Assembly (NCBI GenBank): GCA_047602405.1
Contig: JASGHJ010000002.1
Coordinates: 1,824,001 to 1,888,000, forward strand
DNA from: Anaeromyxobacteraceae bacterium
GTDB taxonomy: Bacteria; Myxococcota; Myxococcia; Myxococcales; Anaeromyxobacteraceae
Reading direction: 5' to 3'
Length of the DNA: 64,000 bases
The notes beneath the pieces were generated by a model, which saw only the letters and a program-made list of their open reading frames with translations, made no database searches and was not told the origin of the DNA. A program made the translations under genes and the position numbers. Positions 12,939 to 34,885 of the stretch are shown here, in pieces; position 1 is the first letter of the stretch; each line of letters opens with the position of its first letter.

Positions 12939-15900
12939 CTACGGGGCCACGACGTAACGGGCGCGCACCTCGAGGTAGTCGAGGCTCACCTCCCCGTCGC
13001 CGGTGGCGCGCCCGGTGGCAGGCAACCGGCACTGCACGGGCAGGTGCTGCCCGAGCAGGTACTGGGAGGGCGCCGCGCCCAGCGGCACCGACCAGTCGAG
13101 CAGCGCGGGAGCGTCCGCGGTGGCGGCGTTGCCCGCGACGAGCTCCCAGCCCGAGCGCAGGGTGGCGCCGTAGGCCCGCCAGAGCGCGAGCGTCGCGCCG
13201 CGATCGGAGGCGCCCCGCGGAGCCCATGCGCCGCCGCAGGCCGCCCGCACGCGCAGCCCCGCGAGCGTCGCGAGGTCGAACCCGCCCGCGCCGAGGTCGA
13301 GGTCCGCGTGCACCGCCGGGCTCTTCGCCGGATCGAGCTCCGCCTCCCACAGCCCCCGGGACCACGGGTTGATCACGTCGCCGCTCCCGGCGTCTCCGCC
13401 GAAGAGCACGAGCGTCCGGCGCAGGGTGTCGTAGCCCATGCCGAAGCCCGCCCGCGGCGACGGGGGCGTCCCGTAGGTCGCGCGCTGGCGCCAGCGGGCG
13501 CCGTCCCACTCCCAGAAGTCGTTGAAGTAGGTGTAGGGGAACGCGCCCGTCCGTCCGCCGAACATCATGACGACGCCGCGGTCCGGGTCGTAGGCCATGC
13601 GGTGGTCGCACCGGGCGGCGGGCCAGGGCTCGCTGGCCGCGGGCTGCCTGCGCGTCCACGCGCCGACCGTGGGCGACGTGGCGTCACCGTCCCACTCCCA
13701 CAGCTCGTCGAGCGCGGTGGTCCCGGCGCAGCCGCCGAACGCCACGATGACCCCGCCCCGCACCGGGCTGTAGGCGAGCGCCGGAGCGCGCCGGGCGCCC
13801 GGCTGCGTCCCGCCCGCCGGCGTGCGGTCGAGCCAGGCGGCGCCGGTCCACTCCCAGACGCGGTTGTCCGAGCCGCCGAACAGCACGCCGCGTCCGCGGC
13901 CGAGATCCCAGGCCATCGCGGCGGGATCGCGCGTGCCCGGGTTCGAGGTCGACGCGAGCGTCGCCCAGCCGCCCGCCTCGGTCCACCGCGCCACGTCGTT
14001 GTTGGCGGTCGTGACGTAGCCGCCGAAGAGGAAGAACCTCCCGCCCGCGGCGGGATCGTACACGAGGGCCGAGTCGCGCCGGGCGGTCGTCGCGCCCGCG
14101 TTCCACCAGCGCGTCCCGTCCCAGCGGTAGTACTGGCCGATCGCGTCCACCGAGCCAGGCCCGGCCTGCCCGCCCACCACGTAACACCCGCCGCTCCCGA
14201 CCGGCGTGCACGCCAGCCCGGGACCGCGCACGGCGGCGGGCGGGCCCGGCGGCGTGGCCGGGCACGGCCACCCGGTCGCCGTCAGGCGGAGCTCGTAGGC
14301 GAAGATGCCGGACGTGAGGTCGCGGCCGCCGAAGAGCATCGTCGCGTGCGCGAGCGGGCTGTGGGCGAGCTGGATCGAGCGGCGCCGGATGGGCTCGCAG
14401 CCGGTGTACGGCCCGTTGATCGCGGCCCAGCCCTTCGACGTCCACCGGTAGGTGAGCTGCGTCTCGTCGTTGACGTAGCCGCCGGTCATCACCACCGCGC
14501 CGAGATCGGCGTCGTAGACCATCGCGTGGCCCGAGCGGGCCGGAGGTGCGACGGTCCCCGACCACGGGCTCCAGTCCTTCCCGTCCCAGAGCCAGGTGTC
14601 GGGGAGGTCGCCGCCCGCGCCCTTGCCGCCGAAGAGCACCACCTGCCCGAGCGCCGGGTCGTAGCCGAGGGCGTGCTCGGCGCGCGGCGCGAGCGCGGGC
14701 GGGACCGGCAGCGACCGCCAGCCCTTGCCGTCCCAGATCCACGCGTCCGCGAGCGGCGTGCCGGCTGCGTCCCTGCCGCCGACGAGCAGGACCTGCCCGC
14801 GATCCACGAGGTCCACCATCGCGGCCGCCCGGCGCGGCGACGGCCCCGCGCCCGTCGCGAAGCGCCGGCCCCAGGCGGAGCCGTTCCAGGTCCACAGGGC
14901 GTCGGTGGCGGTGGCGCCCGGGCCGCCGCCGAAGACGAGGACGACCGAGCGCGCGCTGTCGTAGACCATGGCGTGCCCCGACAGCGGGCCCGGCCCCTCC
15001 CCGGCGTACGGACGCGCGCGCCACGCGCCGTCCCACTCCCAGACGTCCGCGAGCGTCCCCTCGTTGGCGTTGCCGCCGTACATCACGATGACGCCGCGGC
15101 TCGGGTCGTAGGTCATCGCGTGGGCCTCGCGGGCCGGCGGCACCGGGGCGGCCTCACCGGCGACGGCGAACGGGATGCCGAACTCGGCGCGCAGGCCGGT
15201 CCCGTCGAGCCCGGCCACGGCGGCGTCGTCGCCGACGCGCACGGTGCGCTCGTCCACGTAGGTCGCCTGCGCCGCCGGCCGGGTCTCGAGGCGATGCGGC
15301 CCCGCGTCGCCCACGGTCCCGCGGAGGGTGCCGACCCACTCGACGTTCCGGACGGCCACCGGCGCGCTGGCGTTGCCCGCGTCGTCGAGGCCGCGCACCC
15401 AGACGCGGGGCGCATCGCTCGCGAGCGGCGTGCGCGGCCACGCGCCGCCCGCGCCCGGGGTGAGCTCCGCGAGCAGCCCGAACCCGTCCTTGCTCGCGAG
15501 CACCTGCACGCGGCGGAGCGGCGCGGCGCCGCCGAAGGAGAAGGTCCCGGCCGGCAGCGTCGCGCTCCCGCCCAGGGTGTCGGCCGGGGCGAGCTCGAAG
15601 TAGGGGCCGGCCGGCAGGACCCACCCGGCCACGGTCTCGCTCACCTGGTTGCCCGTGGGCGAGCGGACGAAGGTCACCGCACCCTGGTTCACGACGAGGG
15701 CCGGCGCGGCCTGCCGGACCACCACGGACGGGCCCGGCAGCGGGGCCGACGCGTTCCCGGCGGCGTCCCGCAGGGTCACGACGGTCGCGAGCGTGCCGGA
15801 GGAGGTCCCGGCGTTCGCGAGCCCGGTGAACGCGGCGGTCCCGGCGGCCCCGGACACGGCCGGGACGAAGTCCAGGCCGGCGGGCGCGGTGGTCTCGAGC

Positions 15901-16542
15901 GCCTGCAGCGCGGCGTCGGCGAGGGGCTCGTCCGCGTCGAGCTCGACCCTGATCTCGGTCCCGCCCGTGGCTGCGGCGAGGTCGGCCTCCGCGAGCGGGT
16001 TCGCCGGCCCGGGCAGGTACCTGACCCGGGCCGTGGTCAGGCCGGGCGGGGTGCGATTCGTAGGTCACGCTGCCGAGCGCGACCCCGAGGTTCTCGGCGC
16101 CCGTGGCGCCGACGAGGCTCGCGCTGACGGCGTACGTGCCCTCCGGCTCGGGGGTGCCGCCCTGACCGAAGCGGCGCCCGAGGACGTACCTCCGGCCGCT
16201 GGCGCTCACGACCTCGAGCGGGATGGAAGTCGTCCCGAGCGTCGCGACCACCTGGGGCGGCCCCGCGAGGTCGGCGGTGGCCTCGAGCTCGACCGTGAGG
16301 ATCCCTTGCGCCGCGAGGAGCGCGGGCTGGACCCGCGTCGAGGCCGCGACGAGCCCCGGGGCCGGGTCGCCGGCGCGCTCGGTCGAGACGCAGCGCTGGA
16401 TGGAGGAGCGGCACGTGAACCCCGACGGGCAATCCGCGTTGCGCTCGCACGTGACGAGGGCGCCGGGGTCGACCTCGAGCTTCGGGCTGCAGGCGAGGAG
16501 TAGCGCGGCGATGGCGACCAGACCCGCGAGCTGGGCTCTCAT
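12939..16542 (-). CDS. Large (~1200 aa) lipoprotein with Cys-rich N-terminus, Ig-like region and 12 Kelch-like repeats; probable frameshift at 16055-16059
   Basis: Lipobox LLAC; removing one base (TYD-RTPPG) joins the two ORFs; repeated R..H.M.YD..RG.V.LFGG...D.WEWDG..W. Confidence 0.75.
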
Positions 16543-18863: not shown

Positions 18864-19364
18864 ATGGGAAAGTCCGGCGGCCTCATCCTGCTCGCCCTCG
18901 GCGGGCTCGTCGCCTCGCTCGCGGGCCAGACGACCTGGTCCACCTGGCAGAACCTCTCCGCGGGCCCCGTCGCCGCGACCGTCGCCTCGGCGCCGGCGGA
19001 GCGGTGGATCACGCTCGAGGACGCGGCGGTGCGCTGCGACACCCGCCGGACCGCCGGGCGCTCGGCGTTCTACGAGGCGTCCCCCAGGGCGGGCGGCGAG
19101 GTCTTCCTCGTGCAGGCGGCCGAGGACCAGCCGTGCGAGGGGCTGGTGCTCCAGGGCGGCTTCGGCCGCGACCGGCTGACGGCGGAGAACATCCGCTCCC
19201 GGCTCGGCGTCGAGCCGCCGAAGCAGGGCGACGCGCGGGTCTTCAACGTGCTCGGTCCCGACTTCATGAAGCGCGCGCTCTACGTCGCCGGCCCGATGTT
19301 CCTGCTCGGGCTCGCGACGATCGCGCTCGGCCTGCGCCGGTACCGCGCGGCGCAGCGTCAATAG
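18864..19364 (+). CDS. Hypothetical membrane protein
   Basis: N- and C-terminal hydrophobic segments flanking a two-Cys extracytoplasmic domain. Confidence 0.65.
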   Translation: MGKSGGLILLALGGLVASLAGQTTWSTWQNLSAGPVAATVASAPAERWITLEDAAVRCDTRRTAGRSAFYEASPRAGGEVFLVQAAEDQPCEGLVLQGGFGRDRLTAENIRSRLGVEPPKQGDARVFNVLGPDFMKRALYVAGPMFLLGLATIALGLRRYRAAQRQ

Positions 19365-21004
19365 TCGGCGTACACCGTGGCGTTGCCGGCGATCCCCACC
19401 GGCGGGCTCTGGCCGGAGATTGGCACGCGCGCGAGCGCCGCGAGCCTCAGCCCCACGTGCGGGTTGAAGGCGATCGCGCTGCCGAGCGAGAGCCCCGCCT
19501 CGTCCTGGAACAGCCCCAGCGACGACTCGTGCGAGTACGTCGCGCGGGCGGTGAGCCGGAGCGCCTCGCCCGCCCTCCAGCCGACCTGCGTGTAGGCGCT
19601 CCGGCCGTCGAGCCACCCGCGCTCCTCGAGGTAGCCGAGCACGAGATCGATCCGGTTCCCGAGCAGGCGCAGCGCGGAGAGCTCCGGGCCCACCCACGCC
19701 CGGTTCAGCTTCGAGTCGGTGTCGCGGGACGCGCCGCCCACGACCGCGAGGCGCAGGTACCGCCAGGCGTCGAACGAGACGAAGCCGTCGGCGGCGTCGC
19801 CGCGGCCCGGGTAGACCGAGGGCTCGAGCAGGCGGTCCGGCCACGCGAGCGCCTGGCGGCGCGCGCCCAGCCCGACGAGGAGGCTCTGGAACGGGTGCAG
19901 CGTGACGTCCACGCGGGCGAGGTCGAGCTTGCCGGGCGCGGAGACCTGCCCGCCGGCGCCGAGGCGCGCCTCCGCGTTGACGTCGACCGCCTTCGCCCAC
20001 GCCCGCGCGCCCAGGTCCACCTCGACGCGCGAGCCGAGCTCCGGCGACTTCACGAACGCGAGGCGCCCGTCGGTGGCGACCTGCACGCCGCTCGCGAACA
20101 CCTTGCCGATCGACCACGTCCCGCCCGCGGTCACCCGCTCGGTGCCGGGGGTGAGCGTGTCCGGCGCCGGCAGCGCGCCGGCGTAGAGGCCGAGGCGGGC
20201 CGGGCCGGTGTCGAACCGCGCCGACACGCCGTCCACCACCGTCGCGCCCAGGGCGCCGAAGGACCGCAGGCGGCCGGCCGAGAAGGTCGCGAAGGAGATC
20301 GGCGCGTTCACCTGCGCCTGCCAGACGTGGATGCGGGTGGCGGGCCCCTCCCCGAGGTCGTGCGAGTCGGGCACCCACCGCTCGGCGCGCGCGTCGAGGT
20401 CGAGCGTGAAGCGGCCGCCGACCGGGACGCCGTGGAGCATGACGTCGACGCGCGCGGCCTCGCGGTCCTGCCCCGGGCCGGTGGACGTCCAGGCCCAGGC
20501 AGAGAGCCCGAGCTCCGCGTTCCGGGCGGTGGGGCCGGCCGGCCGCGGGCCGGTCGCCTTGAAGACGACCTGCGGCAGCGGGGGCGCCGCCGCGACGAAC
20601 GAGGCCCGGCGCGCGAGCTCGTCGTCCTCGACCAGCGGCTCGAGCGTCTTCACCTCGCCGCCGGCCGGAGCGCCGGCCTGGAAGTATGCGTCGTCGCCCT
20701 TCCTGAGCCCGGCGACCGCGCACGAGGCGTTGTGATCTCCCACCTGGTCGACGGTGCAGCGCCCGACCACCTCGGCGCGGCGCTTGAAGGTGACCTGCTC
20801 GCCGAGCGACAGGCCGTCCACCGCGCCCGCGTCGAGGTAGGCGCGCGTGGCGGACAGGTAGACGACGTCGGCGGTGCCCGCCCTGTGGCTGGCGCGGCGC
20901 GGGCCGCCCTCCTCGAGCGGCGAGGCGCGCAGCACGACCGCCGGCGGGCGGGCGCCGGGCGCGAGGGCGACGAGAACGGCGAGGGCGAGGCCGAGGGTCT
21001 CCAT
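19358..21004 (-). CDS. Putative outer-membrane beta-barrel (porin) with N-terminal beta domain
   Basis: Signal peptide; long run of amphipathic beta-strand patterns; C-terminal aromatic (ATVYADY); last gene of the cytochrome operon. Confidence 0.7.
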   Translation of the reverse strand: METLGLALAVLVALAPGARPPAVVLRASPLEEGGPRRASHRAGTADVVYLSATRAYLDAGAVDGLSLGEQVTFKRRAEVVGRCTVDQVGDHNASCAVAGLRKGDDAYFQAGAPAGGEVKTLEPLVEDDELARRASFVAAAPPLPQVVFKATGPRPAGPTARNAELGLSAWAWTSTGPGQDREAARVDVMLHGVPVGGRFTLDLDARAERWVPDSHDLGEGPATRIHVWQAQVNAPISFATFSAGRLRSFGALGATVVDGVSARFDTGPARLGLYAGALPAPDTLTPGTERVTAGGTWSIGKVFASGVQVATDGRLAFVKSPELGSRVEVDLGARAWAKAVDVNAEARLGAGGQVSAPGKLDLARVDVTLHPFQSLLVGLGARRQALAWPDRLLEPSVYPGRGDAADGFVSFDAWRYLRLAVVGGASRDTDSKLNRAWVGPELSALRLLGNRIDLVLGYLEERGWLDGRSAYTQVGWRAGEALRLTARATYSHESSLGLFQDEAGLSLGSAIAFNPHVGLRLAALARVPISGQSPPVGIAGNATVYADY

Positions 21005-21007
21005 CCG

Positions 21008-21847
21008 TCAGTCTCCGTTGCCGGCCGGGTGGCACCGCAGGCAGGCGGCCGTCGCGTACTCGTAGCCCTGCCTGCCCGCGTGCTGCCGATCCATCTCGCT
21101 CCGCGAGTGGCAGCCGGAGCAGTCCTTCACCGAGAAGTCCGCGGCCCAGGGCCGGTCGGAGCGGAGCGAGGGATGGCAGGTGAGGCAGTTCCCGCCCCTC
21201 GCCGGGCCGTGCTTCCCCGACGCGATCCCGAACGGCTGGTGCGCCGACACCCGGTCCACCTGCCCTTCGCCGTGGCAGCGCACGCACTGCATCGAGCCGA
21301 AGGCGTACCCCGTCGTCGGGTCGGGCTTCACGAGCACGTGGGCGGACGCCATCGCCGGCTGCTCGTGGCCGTGGCAGCCGGCGCACCCGAGCACCTTCCG
21401 GTCCGTCGGCTGCACGTGGCAGTCGGCGCACCTCGCCGTGGCGTGCTTCGTCGCGGCGCCGATCGGGAAGTACTTCTGCGTGTGCACCGCCGGGTCGATG
21501 CCCGAGGCGGTCCCGTCGGAGTGGCAGAGCTTGCAGCCCTGGCTCGGCACGGACCGGTCCGCGGCCGAGAAATCCGGGAAGCCCGCCTGGCCCACGTGCT
21601 TCGCCTGGAGGTTCGCCGCGTCGGCCGCGGTGCCCGCGTGGCACGTCACGCAGTCGAACCTGCGGAACGTCTCGTAGGAGCCGTGGCACTCCTCGCACGA
21701 GACGCCGGCGTGGTTGCTCGCGGCCTCGATGGGGAAGTAACTCGCCCCGTGCGAGTCGCGCGACGGCATGGTGAGCCAGGGGGCGTTCCCCCCGTTGCAC
21801 GCCGCGAGCAGCGCCACGGCCGTGAGCGCGGAGAGGCGGGCCCTCAC
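21008..21847 (-). CDS. Nine-heme c-type cytochrome lipoprotein
   Basis: GTG overlaps upstream stop; lipobox LAAC; 9 CxxCH motifs in three tri-heme units. Confidence 0.9.
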   Translation of the reverse strand: MRARLSALTAVALLAACNGGNAPWLTMPSRDSHGASYFPIEAASNHAGVSCEECHGSYETFRRFDCVTCHAGTAADAANLQAKHVGQAGFPDFSAADRSVPSQGCKLCHSDGTASGIDPAVHTQKYFPIGAATKHATARCADCHVQPTDRKVLGCAGCHGHEQPAMASAHVLVKPDPTTGYAFGSMQCVRCHGEGQVDRVSAHQPFGIASGKHGPARGGNCLTCHPSLRSDRPWAADFSVKDCSGCHSRSEMDRQHAGRQGYEYATAACLRCHPAGNGD

Positions 21848-24682
21848 CTGCGCACCCCGCGCGACCCGCTCGCGGGCAGGCGCAGCCCGGCGCCGCCGGT
21901 GGAGAACTTGTGGCACTCGTAGCACTTGCGCTCCGTGCACGAGAAGCCGGCCACCTGCTCGTGCTCGGCGCAGGAGTGGCACGACTGGCACTTCGTCGTG
22001 TCGGTGAGGCAGGTGAGCGGCTTCGTGACGTCGACGCCCGGTGGGACGGACGCGTGGCAGTCGCGGCACCTCACGCCCGCGTGGCGGCCGCGCGAGAATC
22101 TCGAAGCAGGCGTCGTGGCCCGCGAGGCCCGAGGGCGAGAAGCCCCACGTCGAGTGGCACCGCTGGCAGGCGGTCGGGAACCCCGCGACCGCGTGGTCGA
22201 CGAGCGCCCCGCCGGCCTTCGCCCGGTCGAACTCGGCCTGGTGACACCCGAGGCACTCCCGCGTCGCGCGGGTGAACCCGAGGTCGCGGCGGTTCGCGTG
22301 GCACTGGTCGCACGCGGTGAAGGCGTGCTTGCCGGTGAGCGGGAAGTCGCTGCGCCGGTGCGCGTCGGCGTCGAAGCGGGTCGCGCGCCAGGAGGTGGCG
22401 TCGTGGCAGCGCTCGCAGCGCCCGCCGAGGCGGCCGGCGTGGACGTCGGCGTGGCAGGCCGCGCAGGCGCGCGGCACCGGCGCCTTGAAGGTGCGGTCCA
22501 CGTGGCAGCCGCCGCAGGCCGCGCGCTGGTGCGCGCCCTCGAGCGGGAAGCCGGTGCGGGCGTGGTCGAAGCCCTGGGCCTGCCAGCTCGCGGTCGAGTG
22601 GCAGGAGGCGCAGACGGTCTCGGTGGAGGCCGGCGCGGCGTCGGCCCGGGCGGTGCGGACCGACAGGTCGGGCGCGGGCGACGGGCGCGCGCCCCTCGCT
22701 GCCTGGGCGGAGCCCGCCGGCGCGGGCGCGGCCGCGCCGGGCGCCTGCATCGACGCGGGGAGCGAGAAGCCGCGGAACGCCCCCTTGTGGAAGTCGTCGT
22801 GGCAGGCCTGACAGGCGACCGGCACGGGCTTGTACCGGCGCGTCTCGACGCCGGCGACCTTCACGAGCCCGTGGCACCTCGCGCACTCGACCTTCTCGTG
22901 CTTGCCGTCGAGCACGAAGCGCGAGAACTGGGCCGTGTGCCGGAACTTGAGGTTCGGGTCCTTCCAGCCCGCCGAGACGTGGCAGCGGGCGCAGTCGGTC
23001 TGGCCCTTCACCGCGAGCTGACCCTGGTGGATGTCCGGGTGGCAGCCCGCGCAGGTGATCGGGAGCGGCTTGTACTTGATGGCGCCGTCCGGCCCGGTCT
23101 TGTGGCAGGAGCCGCAGGCCGCGTTCGTGTGCTTGCCGTCGAGCGGGAAGCGCGACTCCTTGTTGTGGTCGAACCGCACCTTCTTGAAGGACTCGAGCAC
23201 GTGGCAGGCCGCGCAGCCGGTGCCCGCGCCGGCGGTCGACGCCGCCGCGGTGAGCCGGGCGTCGAACTGGCCGCCGTGCGGATCGCGGTGGCAGGTGCGG
23301 CAGTCGCCCGCCCTCGGGATCGCGAGGAGCGCCTGGCTCACCTTCAGCGGGCGCTTGCGCCGCGCGAGCTCCTTCTTGATCGCCTCGGGGACCTTGCGCT
23401 CGAGGCGCGGGTCCTTCGGGTGGCAGAGCGCGCACGCCACGGCCTTGTGCGCGCCCTCGAGGCGGTACTCGAGCTTCGCGTGATCGGCGACGTCGAACTT
23501 CACCGGGAGGAAGCCGTTCACCGTGTGGCAGGCCTCGCAGTCCGGGCCGGCGGCCGGCGGGGCCGCGGCGATCACCGGCTGGACCTTGCCCTTCTTGCCC
23601 TTCCGGCCGCCCTCCAGCGACGCGTTCGCCGGCAGCGGCCCCGCGATGGCGAGCCGCGCGAGCTGGCCCTCGTGCGCGTCGAAGTGGCAGTCCGAGCACC
23701 TCCCGAACGCCATGTTCTTGAAGACGGCCTTCTGGCCCGCGAACGGCCCGTGGCACGCCGTGCACTTCACCTCGACGTGCTCGCCGCGCAGCGGGTAGCG
23801 GGTCTTGTCGTGGAACGCGCGCTCGGCGGCGGCGCCGGAGAGCTTCTTCCAGTCGGCCACCGTGTGGCAGCCCGCGCAGCGCTCGCCGAAGCGGCCGACG
23901 TGCGGGTCCTTGTGGCAGTCGGTGCAGTTGCCGAACTGGAGCCCGGTGTACTTCACGAACGCGGCCGCGTTCGCGAAGGCGACCTGGCCCGGCGCCGGCT
24001 TGCGCTGCTCGGGGTCCTGCTCCGGCTTGTGGCACTTCGCGCACTCGACGCGGGCGTGCTTGCCCTCGAGCGGGTACTTCGCCTTCGCGTGGACGAAGCC
24101 CCTCGCGGGCTTCCAGGCGTCCTCGCCGTGGCAGCGCTGGCAGTCGTTGCCGAGCTGGCCGCGGTGCTCGTCGGCGTGGCAGGCCGCGCAGGCGGCGGGC
24201 GCGCCGAGCCAGCTCTTCTTGCCGGGGTGCTTCTCGAGGAGCGCGAGCACGCCTGCGTCGGCGACGAGCCGGTGGTCGTGGCACTTCTCGCAGTCGGCCC
24301 GCCGGTGCCTCCCGCGCAGCTCGTAGCCGGTCCGGGCGTGGTCGAACCCCTTCCGGCCCTCCTTGCCCCAGTCGACGAGGGCGAAGTCGCGGCCCTGGTG
24401 CTCGTGGTGGCACTTCTCGCAGGCCTCGCCCGGCGGGAGCTTGCCGTGGAGCCCCTTGCCCCGGCCCATGAGCGCCTTCACCTCGCCGTGGCAGGCGAGG
24501 CACGCCTCCGGCGTGAGCTGCTTCCCGGCGGTGTGGCACTTCGTGCAGTTCTGGAGCCCCTCGTAGGCGGCGTGGGCCTTCGCGAGCTCGCCGGGCGAGA
24601 ACAGGTCGGCGCGCGCGGCGGCGGGAGCGGCGAGCGCGAGGGCGGCGGCGAGCGCCGCGGCGGATCGGCGGAGGAGGTTCAT
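21844..24682 (-). CDS. Giant multiheme cytochrome c (~945 aa, 30 CxxCH); probable frameshift at 22096-22100
   Basis: Sec signal MNLLRRSAAALAAALALAAPAAARA; 27 CxxCH before and 3 after the one-base insertion; repeating FDH..T.FPL.G.H units. Confidence 0.9.
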
Positions 24683-26910
24683 CGGTGGAGGAGCCCGTAG
24701 CCGAGGTAGAGCGACAGCCCGATGTGGGCGGCGATGACGAGGACGAGCAGCACGGCGAGCGTGGCGTGGAAGGCCCGCCAGGTGCGCAGGAGCCGCTTGA
24801 GGCTCCCGTAGAAGCGGATCTGCCAGCGCAGGGTCTCGAGCTTCAGGATCGCGAGCTTGAACGACTTGAACGCGAGCTTGTCGTCGAACCTGAACCGCAG
24901 GAAGAACAGGCGGACGCGCAGCCAGAGCGCCCCCGCCGGCAGCTCCAGGAAGAGGACCGCGAGGAAGCGGGTCTTCACCGGCGCCGTCGCCTTCGCGATG
25001 AGCGCGTGCGCCGACCCCGAGGCGCGCTCGGGGATGTCGGTGAACGAGCCGCGCAGGCGCTCGAAGTGCCCGAGCAGCTCGGAGAGCTCGAGCGACTTGC
25101 CGCCGTCGCCCGGCACGATGCCGTAGATGAACCGCCCGATGATGCCGGTCGTCACCACGACGACGAGCGAGCTCGCGGTGCCCGTGGCGAGCAGGTTGTT
25201 GGACTGGAAGGCCGCGTGGTACGCGATGACGAGCGGGCTCATGAACCCCACGAAGACGTGGAAGTCGAGCCAGCTCCCGATCTTCCCGAGCGCCGAGAGC
25301 GACTTCCAGCGCTTGCGGGCCGCGTAGAGGAAGTTCGAGAGCATGAACGCGGTCGCGGCGATGCCGACCGAGTGGCCCCACGTGCCGGCGGACTTGAGCG
25401 ACGGGTGCTCCGGGGAGGCCAGGCGGCCCGCGCGATCGAGGGGGTAGTAGTCGCGCCCCACCCACGCCAGCCCGGCGAGGATCGCGGCGCCCACCGCGAC
25501 GTAGGCGACGCGGGCCGCGACGCGCCCCTTCGACGTCTTCGGCCGGGCGAGCGCGCGGGGCAGGAGCCCGTTGCCGCCGATGACCACGTTGGGGCCGGTG
25601 TCGCCGAGCCCCTCGCCGTGGAACCGGCGCATCGTGATGCCCACCTTCGCGAGGAACTCGGTGGGCAGCTCGCCGCCGATGTTCACGATGACGAAGGTGT
25701 TCGGGAGGGTGACCGGGGTCCCGTCCCTGTCGAGGTCGACGGACTTCTCGCCGATCCGCGTCACCACGGACGGGAGCAACGCCTTGATCTTCCCCGCCGT
25801 CACGAGCTGGCCGAACTTCTTGCGGTTCGCCTCGCGGCAGCGGCCGAGCTCGGCGCCGCGGTACGAGAGCGTCACCTCGGCGGTGGACTCCTCGGCGAGC
25901 TGGATGGCGGCCTCGAGCGCGGCGTCGCCGCCGCCGACCACGAGGACCTTCTCGCCGTCGAACTGGTCGGGGTCCTTGAGGCCGTAGAGCACCTTCTCGG
26001 CCGCCTCGCCCTGCACCCCGAGCTTGCGCGGCGTGCCGCGGCGGCCGATCGCGAGCACGACCTTCGAGGCCTTCAGGGTCCCCTGGCTCGTCTTGACGGT
26101 GAAGTTCCCGTCCTCGCCCTCGATCTCGTTGACCTTGACGCCCTCCTCGACCCGCACGCCGACCTTCGCGAGGACCTTCTGCCAGGTCTCGAGGAGCTCC
26201 TCCTTCGAGATGCGCGCCTTCCCGACCCGGCCCGCGCCGCCCGGCAGCTCGACGGTCTCGGTCATCGTGACCTTGCGGCGCGGGTAGTGCGCGACCGAGC
26301 CGCCGACGGTCAGCTGCTCGAGGATGCGGTGCGGGACGCCCTTCGACTTCAGGCCCACGGCCGTCGCGATGCCGGCGGGGCCGGCGCCGACGATGACGAC
26401 CGGATCCTTCGCCCGGCCCACGAGCTCGGCGATCCGGTCCGCGACCTGGAGCCCCTGGGTGAGCGCGTTCTTGATGAGGCCCATCCCGCCGAGCTCGCCC
26501 ACCACGTGGAGGCCCGGGCGCGAGGACTCGAAGAACTCGTCGACCTCGGGGAGGTCGACGCCGCGCTCCGAGGAGCCGAACACGAGGCGGATGGCGTGGA
26601 CCGGACACTCGACGGCGCACTTGCCGTGGCCGATGCAGTGGTCGCCGTGAACGAGGCGCGCGGCGCCGTCGACGACGCCGAGGATGTCGCCCTCGGGGCA
26701 GGCCTTCAGGCAGGAGAGGCTTCCGATGCAGATGTCGGTGTCGATGACCGGGTGTAGGGACTTCGCGAGGTGCGCACCCCTCGCCTTCTTCTCCTCGAAG
26801 AGCTCCTCGTCGCGGCGCTGGCGCGCGCCGCGACGCGCGACGTGTACGATCCCGGCCACCGCGGTGACGAACGCAAGCGCGGCGACGATCGAAAGACTGA
26901 AAATGTCCAT
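24679..26910 (-). CDS. Membrane-bound ferredoxin / FAD-NAD(P)H oxidoreductase fused to putative di-heme b membrane domain
   Basis: N-terminal TM; CIGSLSCLKACP and CIGHGKCAVECP; GAGPAG and GGGDAA Rossmann motifs; C-terminal TMs with two H-x13-H helices. Confidence 0.85.
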   Translation of the reverse strand: MDIFSLSIVAALAFVTAVAGIVHVARRGARQRRDEELFEEKKARGAHLAKSLHPVIDTDICIGSLSCLKACPEGDILGVVDGAARLVHGDHCIGHGKCAVECPVHAIRLVFGSSERGVDLPEVDEFFESSRPGLHVVGELGGMGLIKNALTQGLQVADRIAELVGRAKDPVVIVGAGPAGIATAVGLKSKGVPHRILEQLTVGGSVAHYPRRKVTMTETVELPGGAGRVGKARISKEELLETWQKVLAKVGVRVEEGVKVNEIEGEDGNFTVKTSQGTLKASKVVLAIGRRGTPRKLGVQGEAAEKVLYGLKDPDQFDGEKVLVVGGGDAALEAAIQLAEESTAEVTLSYRGAELGRCREANRKKFGQLVTAGKIKALLPSVVTRIGEKSVDLDRDGTPVTLPNTFVIVNIGGELPTEFLAKVGITMRRFHGEGLGDTGPNVVIGGNGLLPRALARPKTSKGRVAARVAYVAVGAAILAGLAWVGRDYYPLDRAGRLASPEHPSLKSAGTWGHSVGIAATAFMLSNFLYAARKRWKSLSALGKIGSWLDFHVFVGFMSPLVIAYHAAFQSNNLLATGTASSLVVVVTTGIIGRFIYGIVPGDGGKSLELSELLGHFERLRGSFTDIPERASGSAHALIAKATAPVKTRFLAVLFLELPAGALWLRVRLFFLRFRFDDKLAFKSFKLAILKLETLRWQIRFYGSLKRLLRTWRAFHATLAVLLVLVIAAHIGLSLYLGYGLLHR

Positions 26911-33347: not shown

Positions 33348-34885
33348 ATGCGAAGGGTCCTGCTCGACGGTGAGACGCTGAAGCTGGAGGAGGTCGTGGC
33401 CGTGGCGCGCGGTGAGGCCCGGGCGGAGCTCTCGCCCGACGCCCGCCTCCGGGTCCGGCGGTCGCGCGCGCTCGTCGAGGCGCGGCTCGAGGACGGCGAG
33501 CCGCACTACGGCATCAACACCGGCTTCGGCACCCTCGCCGAGGTCCGCATCGACCGCGCCGACCTCGAGAAGCTGCAGCGCAACCTCGTGCTCTCCCACG
33601 CCGCCGGCGTCGGCGCGCCCCTGCCCCTCCACGAGGCGCGCGCGCTCATCGTGCTGCGCGCGAACGTGCTCGCGAAGGGCGCCTCGGGGATCCGCGAGCA
33701 GACGCTCGACCTCCTCGTGCAGATGCTCGAGAAGGGCATCGTCCCGTACGTGCCCGAGCGCGGCTCGGTGGGCGCCTCGGGCGACCTCGCGCCGCTCGCG
33801 CACCTCGCGCTCGCGGTGATCGGCGAGGGCGAGGTGTTCTGGGCGCCCCCGGGCGCCGAGCCCGCCCGGATGTCCGCGGGGGAGGCGCTCGCGAGGGCGG
33901 GGCTGAAGCCGGCGGTGCTCGAGCCGAAGGAGGGCCTCGCGCTCGTGAACGGCACGCAGGCGATGGCGGCCGTGGGCACCCACGCGCTCGTCCGCGCCGA
34001 GCGGCTCGCCCGCGTGGCCGACCTCGCCGGGGCCATGACGCTCGAGGGGCTCCTCGGCTCGCACCGGCCCTTCGAGCCGGCCATCCAGGCGGTGCGCGGG
34101 CAGCCCGGGCAGATCGAGGCCGCCGCGCACCTCCGGGCGCTGCTGCAGGCTCGGAGATCAACGCCTCGCACCAGGGCCCCGACTGCCACAAGGTGCAGGA
34201 CCCCTACTCGCTCCGCTGCATGCCGCAGGTGCACGGCGCCGCGCGCGACGGGATCGGCTTCGCCCGCGGCGTGCTCGCCCGGGAGATCAACGCGGCGACC
34301 GACAACCCGCTCGTCTTCCCGGGCGACTCCGGGAACCCCGCCGACGGCGACATCGTGTCCGGCGGCAACTTCCACGGCCAGCCGGTGGCGCTCGCGCTCG
34401 ACGTGCTCGCGATCGCGATCTCGCACCTCGCCGCGATCTCCGAGCGGCGCGTCGAGCAGCTCGTGAACCCGTCGCTCTCGAACCTCCCGCCGTTCCTGGC
34501 GCCGAACCCGGGGCTCAACTCGGGCTACATGATCGCGCAGGTCACCTCGGCGGCGCTCGTCTCCGAGAACAAGGTGCTCTGCCACCCGGCCTCGGTGGAC
34601 TCGATCCCGTCGTCGGCCGGCCGCGAGGACCACGTCTCGATGGGCATGGCCGCGGCGCTGAAGGCCCGCCAGGTCGTCGAGAACGTCCGCACCTGCCTCG
34701 CGATCGAGCTCCTCGTCGCGGCGCAGGCGATCGACCTGCGCAAGCCGCTCCAGCCGGCCGCGCGGATCGCCGAGGCGCACGCGAAGATCCGCGCGGTCGC
34801 GCCCCGCCTCGAGGCGGACCGCACGCTGCACAAGGACATCGAGGCGGTCGCGCGGCTGGTGGACGACGGGGAGCTGGACCTGTAG
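33348..34885 (+). CDS. hutH: Histidine ammonia-lyase; one-base deletion near 34149
   Basis: [20 protein letters not shown] (ASG MIO), [21 protein letters not shown]; halves in different frames. Confidence 0.92.

Follow-up and report, generated by a model that had tools for sequence, protein, structure and literature searches.

A PCC3-type porin-cytochrome operon from an Anaeromyxobacteraceae bacterium whose membrane subunit is fused to a flavin/iron-sulphur enzyme: a predicted NADPH-fed wire

From where would electrons enter a conduit spanning both bacterial membranes when its inner-membrane subunit carries, in the same polypeptide, a flavin and iron-sulphur (FeS) enzyme of its own? This question is raised by a four-gene operon in a 64-kb stretch of DNA from an Anaeromyxobacteraceae bacterium (contig JASGHJ010000002.1, positions 1,824,001 to 1,888,000), the whole of which is called here the window. 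Porin-cytochrome conduits studied so far are thought to use the quinone pool. The operon analysed here appears instead as a PCC3-type porin-cytochrome set with a flavin/FeS-fused membrane subunit, and the balance of evidence leans towards an outward wire fed by cytoplasmic NADPH (reduced nicotinamide adenine dinucleotide phosphate), not by quinol, a function that is predicted. The features concerned are, in window coordinates:

24679..26910, minus strand: gene A, 743 amino acids (aa), with a membrane anchor, two FeS motifs, a permuted flavin domain and a five-helix membrane domain
26602..26730, minus strand: FeS domain of A, ferredoxin-like, with the atypical motifs C61-S64-C67-C71 and C92-H95-C98-C102 and Fer4 Pfam matches
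25606..26601, minus strand: predicted flavin adenine dinucleotide (FAD)/NADPH domain of A, circularly permuted, with GxGxxG, GGGDxA and (S)YR351 and no thioredoxin reductase (TrxR) CxxC
24682..25524, minus strand: membrane domain of A, with W547-x3-H551-x13-H565 in transmembrane helix 3 (TM3), T588GIIG in TM4 and W711-x3-H715-x13-H729 in TM5
21844..24682, minus strand: gene B, secreted multihaem cytochrome c with 20-haem and 10-haem modules and an Ala/Pro linker, interrupted by one extra base
22097..22098: base insertion in gene B, one base extra relative to relatives
21008..21847, minus strand: gene C, 279 aa, GTG start, 9-haem lipoprotein cytochrome c
19358..21004, minus strand: gene D, 548 aa, predicted outer-membrane protein with a small N-terminal beta domain and a 22-strand barrel

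The operon and its fused inner-membrane subunit

Genes A, B, C and D all lie on the minus strand and together span 19358-26910. An ATGA overlap joins A to B (24679-24682) and a 3-bp gap separates C from D (TGA-CGG-ATG), as stated in the original prediction, which had been made from the letters of the window. Its count of 39 CxxCH motifs is likewise confirmed and, since 39 of the 42 motifs present in all six frames of the window fall in the operon, their clustering is not due to chance. The GTGA overlap that it placed at 21844-21847 holds in the reading frame of the relatives but is not a stop/start overlap in the deposited frame. The closest relative in the genome collection is an Anaeromyxobacter metagenome-assembled genome (95% identity), which points to an Anaeromyxobacter-like host. 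Neither a sigma-70 promoter nor a minus-strand terminator pattern was found at the locus by a pattern search that is uninformative at 74% GC.

Gene A has at least 120 full-length relatives (58-95% identity). Its N-terminal helix (aa 3-22) is followed by RRGARQRR, and Lys/Arg-rich loops stand after TM2, before TM1 and before TM5; following the positive-inside rule, these flanking stretches suggest a cytoplasmic location for residues 23-465. In each of the two FeS motifs the second Cys is replaced (S64, H95), all eight motif positions are invariant in 46/46 aligned relatives, and the His of the second motif is also kept in stand-alone flavoproteins (5/5 and 16/16). The best solved relatives of the flavin domain are 7a76, the Bdr/YpdA structure 7a7b and TrxR-type ferredoxin-NADP+ reductases (E 1e-44 to 1e-21). 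Its circular permutation is apparent from aa 104-156, a normally C-terminal FAD segment that stands here before GxGxxG and aligns (E 3e-9) to the C-terminus of a relative that is not permuted. GGGDxA and Arg351, the latter invariant, are what we take to be NADPH-type motifs. The redox CxxC of TrxR is missing, with no Cys in aa 286-335, and the domain scores below the curated cut-offs for TrxR (64.9 bits vs 343) and YpdA (TIGR04018; 148.9 vs 339.9). An assignment of gene A as a thioredoxin reductase was rejected.

The last ~285 aa of A form five helices. Of the four candidate haem ligands, H551, H565 and H729 are kept in 46/46 relatives and H715 in 45/46, all four being invariant in 57/57 wider relatives, and in the TM4 motif Thr replaces the Ser of SGXXG in 45/46. 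This membrane domain is thus probably a di-haem b protein, in which the predicted topology suggests that H551/H715 face the cytoplasm and H565/H729 the periplasm. Profile comparison with a stand-alone PCC3-type membrane protein gives an hhalign probability of 98%. PF01794 has no match in A and weak matches in 12/57 relatives (best E 1e-4), Ni_hydr_CYTB weakly matches 14/57 members of the membrane-domain family, no solved structure matches the domain by sequence and the Atlas contains no model of it. Two more conserved periplasm-side His, H502 and H513 (the latter in 46/46), are encoded at 25372-25407 on the minus strand and are candidates for holding a further cofactor or for docking B's first haem. 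The cytoplasmic FAD/NAD(P)H and FeS modules of the original prediction were recovered, as were paired-His membrane segments, and the input is narrowed to NADPH by the motifs.

The inner-membrane protein (IMP) of PCC3 and PCC4 is described as ~300 aa long with five helices, WX3HX13H on TM3 and TM5 and SGXXG on TM4, and was likened by He et al. (2017) to a ferric reductase domain (FRD), with two b haems and quinone activity proposed (PMC5566968). The C-terminal ~285 aa of A carry WX3HX13H twice and (S/T)GxxG, and the likeness to PCC3 extends to the order of the genes, in which the membrane protein is followed by a ~20-haem periplasmic cytochrome, another cytochrome and the barrel, and to the 20-haem module, homologous to PCC3 periplasmic cytochromes at ~30 residues per haem. 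PCC3 differs in that here a flavin-FeS enzyme is fused to the membrane protein, the 20 and 10 haems are fused, a lipoprotein is added, barrel D is not detectably homologous and the carrier belongs to Myxococcota instead of Proteobacteria; besides, the published PCC3 model draws on the quinone pool (PMC5566968). PCC4 shares the membrane-protein motif and has FeS and 'other redox-active' genes upstream, but its cytochromes hold 4, 5 and 10 haems, against 30 (20+10) and 9 here. MtrCAB of Shewanella and OmbB-OmaB-OmcB of Geobacter likewise combine a barrel, a periplasmic cytochrome and a lipoprotein cytochrome, but the DmsE/MtrA decahaem and MtrC family models of MtrCAB/MtoAB score below their curated cut-offs in the operon (TIGR03508, 42.6 bits for 192; TIGR03507, 24.8 for 209), and what Shi et al. 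(2014) describe as the pcc cluster of Anaeromyxobacter is another set, of two genes with 12-14 haems (PMC4245776). From its gene content and order, with IMP, periplasmic cytochrome and barrel all present, the operon is thus to be classed with PCC3, not with PCC4 or MtrCAB. The presence of the inner-membrane partner in the operon, presented at first as a novelty, is no such thing: PCC3 and PCC4 are defined with this protein and mto operons include CymA/MtoC (PMC5566968).

Beyond porin-cytochrome sets, the NADPH oxidases (NOX) and ferric reductases (PMC3591440) and MsrPQ (PMC12525009) pass electrons, in the way proposed here for A, from a cytoplasmic NAD(P)H/flavin module to the outside of the membrane through b haems with paired His ligands on TM3 and TM5. 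The dehydrogenase of A is N-terminal and TrxR/Bdr-type with FeS, whereas NOX, from which A differs in this as from the long FRE forms, has a C-terminal domain of FNR (ferredoxin-NADP+ reductase) fold; the acceptor in the operon would be a multihaem chain and barrel, where the others reduce O2, metal ions or a molybdoenzyme. Bdr/YpdA and the TrxR-type FNRs, the closest solved relatives of the flavin domain, share with it the lack of CxxC and the NADPH-type motifs, but they are soluble, not permuted and free of any fusion to an FeS or membrane domain.

Conservation of the fused form and of its unfused counterparts

The 124 loci compared were fetched by likeness to A or its IMP domain and form a biased, partly redundant set. 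The IMP profile finds a match in 91 genomes out of 301 from the window's phylum, 78 of these at E <= 2e-47, and in 28/42 from the window's family (a count that includes the unpublished genome G181, which enters into no other result). The flavin-FeS part and the IMP form one open reading frame (ORF) in 98/102 loci with 1.5 kb of upstream sequence and are adjacent in the other 4; D and at least 20 haems follow in 46/49 loci with 6 kb downstream. In the 81 loci (of 141) with both IMP and D, the 20- and 10-haem genes are separate in 59, fused into a 30-haem gene in 16, of other counts in 4 and incomplete in 2, so that 20+10 haems are kept, split or fused, in 75/81. A C-like lipoprotein occurs in about 28/79 loci as judged by a crude pattern. 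Homologous clusters elsewhere had been named as a possibility, and lack of co-occurrence as a ground for refutation; the genes do co-occur in other genomes, C in a minority of loci. On this distribution, the flavin-FeS/IMP fusion runs across Myxococcota and is not peculiar to the present genome. The IMP family as such is large (3065 representatives at E <= 0.001), with many stand-alone members of ~290-300 aa.

Unfused counterparts are also found. On a plasmid of Emticicia oligotrophica, one gene run comprises ccsBA, IMP, flavin-FeS, a 23-haem and a 40-haem cytochrome and a 538-aa unknown. Among 301 genomes of the phylum of G301 (Pseudomonadota), a close IMP (E <= 4e-41) occurs in 4, and the same 4 have a full-length permuted flavoprotein. 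In the order of G602, 23 genomes out of 351 carry a close IMP (E <= 7e-40, the following match being at 7e-32) and the same 23 a full-length flavoprotein (E <= 1e-146); a further genome, in which no IMP is matched, contains a flavoprotein gene that is broken. No P value is attached to these counts, because the thresholds were chosen post hoc at gaps in the results, G602 belongs to both samples and kin are not independent. The two genes stand head to head at 22/24 places, with 412-1111 bp between match ends, and the unfused flavoprotein retains its own membrane anchor. Sixteen of 25 places were fetched, and 15 hold the IMP, a cytochrome with 21 or 24 haems (split in two in L261) and a further cytochrome of 10-62 haems, with a porin gene at 14 of those 15 (L267 ends at a contig end). 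This matches the published PCC3 layout, with its periplasmic cytochromes of 21, 24 and 27 haems (Hoover et al., PMC9900912). The comparison with PCC3 was made on loci fitting the published description, plus the annotation and peptides of Slit_0866, a search for the named reference proteins of ES-1 or Leptothrix having listed none. In Sideroxydans lithotrophicus ES-1, Slit_0866, a 430-aa FAD-dependent oxidoreductase, adjoins the porin Slit_0867 of the PCC3 cluster Slit_0867-0870 (PMC12016527), and its detected peptides in the supplement of that paper fit the permuted flavoprotein family.

The profile of the 20-haem cytochrome matches the gene next to the membrane gene in 15/15 PCC3-type loci; the 20-haem module of B aligns end to end with their 21/24-haem cytochromes (29-31% over ~620 aa), and the N-terminal module of B is conserved alongside the IMP even in short, porin-less sets of 6-8 haems. 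B counts 30.5 aa per haem. Signal-peptide-like N-termini in B and the 10-haem relatives, and a lipobox in C and its homologues (LLAAC, Cys17 in C, which has 9 CxxCH), were read by eye. As the 20- and 10-haem genes are often separate and a C-like gene occurs only in a minority of loci, B is, from these comparisons, a fusion of two modules and C an accessory. The 10-haem module of B and lipoprotein C are both candidates for an extracellular cytochrome, surface location not being readable from sequence. Locus L001 has an extra gene for a small 3-haem lipoprotein between B and C (L001:15051-15383), its counterpart of C being a 7-haem one.

The last gene had been called a probable beta-barrel, which agrees with the model of D obtained from a 67-sequence alignment (pLDDT 85.5, against 34.5 from the single sequence), with a small beta domain and then 22 strands. 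Its best structural matches are outer-membrane barrels, headed by FyuA (Z 18.0, root-mean-square deviation (rmsd) 5.1, 345 aligned), MtrB ranking 21 (Z 14.9, rmsd 5.5, 331 aligned). D ends in an aromatic residue, as do most of its relatives. It is not matched as an MtrB/PioB-family porin: neither Pfam nor NCBIfam, libraries that include an MtrB model, assigns it to a family, and the one match among 67 relatives is weak and unrelated. A TonB-dependent receptor was rejected, no such Pfam/NCBIfam match being found and the fold likeness being generic to 22-strand barrels. Neither the Emticicia 538-aa gene (hhalign probability 0.9%) nor L255 (37%) matches D significantly.

Several neighbouring arrangements were noted. 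More distant IMPs stand beside or fused to a non-permuted TrxR-like protein with cyclic nucleotide (cNMP)-binding and FeS parts, plus an 8-10-haem cytochrome (L213-L216, L222, L223), and these PCC4-like loci differ from A, which is permuted and has no cNMP domain. On Alteromonas and Methylophaga plasmids, a gene annotated as a 2Fe-2S protein accompanies an IMP and a 7-haem cytochrome, an arrangement that in the hydrogenase cluster of Alteromonas macleodii stands ahead of the hydrogenase genes (L231:9974-13457). Some fused A proteins (L161, L163; P0182, P0219) have an insertion of ~200 aa, P0219 has an FHA domain, and P0307 is an IMP fused to a Ser/Thr kinase; together, the FHA, kinase and cNMP-binding attachments suggest that electron entry is regulated. 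Related 25-30-haem genes adjoin the operon in L015, L028, L160, L168 and L169, and the source genome (G000) has 35 open frames with at least 4 CxxCH, including other 29-30-haem genes and two clusters (C1:1815252-1819022, C2:1159182-1162886, C2:2076058-2104896, C1:319469-332234). An orphan fused A lies among genes reading like heavy-metal RND efflux (L050:2772-17196), an RND pump stands beside a PCC3-type locus (L210/L249) and a Methylophaga plasmid has an IMP set in its mercury/copper region (L230), neighbours that weakly hint at a role in metal reduction or resistance.

NADPH or quinol as the source of electrons

In the mechanism proposed, NADPH would deliver a hydride to FAD, as the TrxR/Bdr-type motifs suggest, and FAD would pass single electrons to the two FeS centres, there being no CxxC for a thiol route. 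From there, electrons would reach the cytoplasm-side haem b (H551/H715) and then the periplasm-side one (H565/H729), the motif and topology being seen and the haems presumed. The N-terminal haems of B would take over, its 20-haem module crossing the periplasm and its 10-haem module inserting in barrel D, with lipoprotein C as an optional lengthening of the path. Cofactor binding, NADPH preference, subunit contacts and direction are all inferred.

An electron moved from the negative to the positive side of a membrane is aided by the membrane potential and spends it, and the reverse needs a very low-potential donor. For this reason the wire would act outwards, reducing acceptors outside the cell (Fe(III), humics or other metals) or serving as a redox valve towards them, rather than as an energy-conserving step: export would be aided by, and dissipate, the membrane potential as in NADPH oxidases, with the proton released inside, so that proton-motive force would be spent, not made, and the operon would be no energy-conserving substitute for CymA or ImcH. 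The idea of a pyridine-nucleotide input in the original prediction is supported and can be sharpened to NADPH by the TrxR/Bdr-type motifs; its treatment of acceptors and donors as equals is doubtful, since a direct wire from the negative to the positive side would favour export and conserve no energy.

An NADPH feed is supported by the proportions given above, namely the fusion itself (98/102), D with its haems (46/49), the 20+10 haems (75/81) and the co-occurrence of IMP and flavoprotein (4/4 and 23/23), together with the Emticicia gene run, the place and peptides of Slit_0866 and the barrel model. Besides, the FRDs that keep all four His are the dehydrogenase-coupled long forms (PMC3591440), a pattern to which A conforms. 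In MsrQ, electrons come from a cytosolic NADH oxidoreductase and not from the ubiquinone that it binds (PMC12525009). Several points weigh against it. MsrQ does bind ubiquinone (PMC12525009), which makes a quinone site in A possible; PCC3 is described as functionally unverified and occurs widely among iron oxidisers, for which an inward flow has been proposed. The second ES-1 cluster, Slit_1446-1449, has no adjacent flavoprotein, being flanked by an HD hydrolase and an aldolase, and is better detected. In two proteobacterial loci (L211, L249) a ccm operon has the flavoprotein gene as its final member, and 4 fused A genes have no cytochromes nearby (L023, L050, L114, L165). D shares with PCC3-type porins one GR..x..DG stretch (hhalign probability 2%), its profile matching 0/14 of them at E 1e-5, and gene B is frameshifted in this assembly.

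The alternative that survives best follows He et al.: the membrane domain would be quinone-active, the wire would trade electrons with the quinone pool and the flavin-FeS part would be a side entry (an NADPH:quinone branch) or a modulator. To the published hypothesis (PMC5566968) are added the ubiquinone of MsrQ, from the same superfamily (PMC12525009), the flavoprotein-less Slit_1446-1449 and the weak Ni_hydr_CYTB matches in 14/57 family members, but a dispensable branch is hard to fit with fusion in 98/102 loci and co-occurrence in 23/23 genomes, and both haem sites are kept, which periplasm-side quinol oxidation would not seem to need. We hold this alternative to be unlikely.

Integrity of gene B, direction of flow and significance

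As deposited, gene B has 27 CxxCH in frame and 3 more out of frame, the extra base at 22097/22098 putting the last 3 motifs and the TGA at 21844-21846 in a different frame, and its start frame continues into C as a single ORF of 1224 aa and 36 motifs. The 30 haems originally ascribed to the gene are reached by counting both frames and are intact in L001 (95% identical), whose counterpart of B has 940 aa and 30 motifs; the deposited ORF keeps 27. Past about residue 862, the coding signal (GC content at third codon positions, GC3, ~1.0) switches frame up to the old stop, and base 22097 is left out by contigs of close relatives, not of this strain, in 3/4 sequencing runs. Compared with L001, the window also shows single-base indels at 16058 and 34148, each disrupting an unrelated gene. 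One is an apparently split long gene for a secreted kelch-repeat/Ig-like lipoprotein (15154-16542 and 12939-16064, minus strand; one-base insertion at ~16058) and the other a split histidine ammonia-lyase-like gene, named from its translation (33348-34885, plus strand; one-base deletion at ~34148). Given the relatives without the base and these other broken genes, the extra base at ~22097 is probably an assembly error. A true 36-haem fusion of B and C was rejected, relatives lacking the extra base and L001 having an intact 30-motif gene.

That the lesion is real, the locus being damaged or altered in this strain with a 36-haem B-C read-through and without the last three haems of the 10-haem module, is what the deposited sequence says at face value, and no sequencing run containing this strain (best word share 0.14), nor any RNA run, was found. 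It is nonetheless distinctly unlikely, the base being missing from relatives, two unrelated genes within 25 kb being also broken by single-base indels and GC3 of ~1.0 persisting in the shifted frame to the old stop.

Inward flow would have NADP+ reduced directly, for biosynthesis, by a donor outside the cell (Fe(II) mineral, reduced humics, a partner cell or a cathode), and TrxR-type FNRs, being reversible, would permit it. PCC3 is found in iron oxidisers (PMC5566968, PMC9900912), and the level of Slit_0866 on late magnetite exceeds that on Fe(II)-citrate (log2 2.4 and 2.6; q 0.018 and 0.003; 5 peptides). With the FADs of related enzymes at -0.24 to -0.29 V as published and an opposing membrane potential, the donor would however have to lie below roughly -0.45 V. 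Many carriers are heterotrophs. Fe(II) is far more positive than that value, and inward flow is held to be improbable. Equally improbable is a service role for A, keeping haem or apocytochrome thiols reduced for maturation or charging the cytochromes as an electron store or oxidant shield, with the wire fed otherwise: although the flavoprotein gene stands last in ccm operons (L211, L249), the Emticicia cluster opens with ccsBA and the nearest solved relative is the disulfide reductase Bdr, maturation genes are matched in only 2/141 related loci, mostly of the fused type, CcsBA homologues lie elsewhere in the source genome, and the membrane protein adjoins a cytochrome whose N-terminal module is co-conserved even in the 6-8-haem, porin-less sets.

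With the NADPH-fed outward wire retained as the favoured reading, the apparently new element is its cytoplasmic input, i.e. a permuted FAD-NADPH domain of TrxR/Bdr type, without CxxC and with two atypical FeS sites, joined in one protein to a PCC3-type membrane domain, the operon being otherwise a variant of PCC3. No description of the fusion or of a PCC3 flavoprotein subunit emerged from a literature search outside which most subscription journals lay, and the PCC4 supplementary figure of He et al. may show pyridine-nucleotide oxidoreductase domains. 'Flavo', 'pyridine' and 'FAD' are absent from the main text of PMC5566968, and neither operon nor flavoprotein is described in the available parts of PMC2330069, PMC7399161, PMC6295460, 10.1101/2025.02.27.639646 and 10.1101/2024.09.20.614158.

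A more tentative extension, which we regard as possible but as yet doubtful, is that the whole class of PCC3-type conduits consists of five-part machines akin to NADPH oxidases, which work independently of quinone and export NADPH electrons across both membranes. If true, the fused Myxococcota gene, with the whole inner-membrane step in a single polypeptide, would reveal a PCC3 subunit overlooked through its usual divergent transcription. Cultured carriers are at hand, namely Anaeromyxobacter oryzae Red232, A. dehalogenans, E. oligotrophica and S. lithotrophicus ES-1. PCC3 clusters serve as candidate iron-oxidation genes, and an NADPH-type flavoprotein predicts another electron source, an outward direction and no energy conservation; in iron oxidisers, PCC3 would then act not as an Fe(II) oxidase but as a reductase or redox valve, and bacteria would have a second basic design for extracellular electron transfer.

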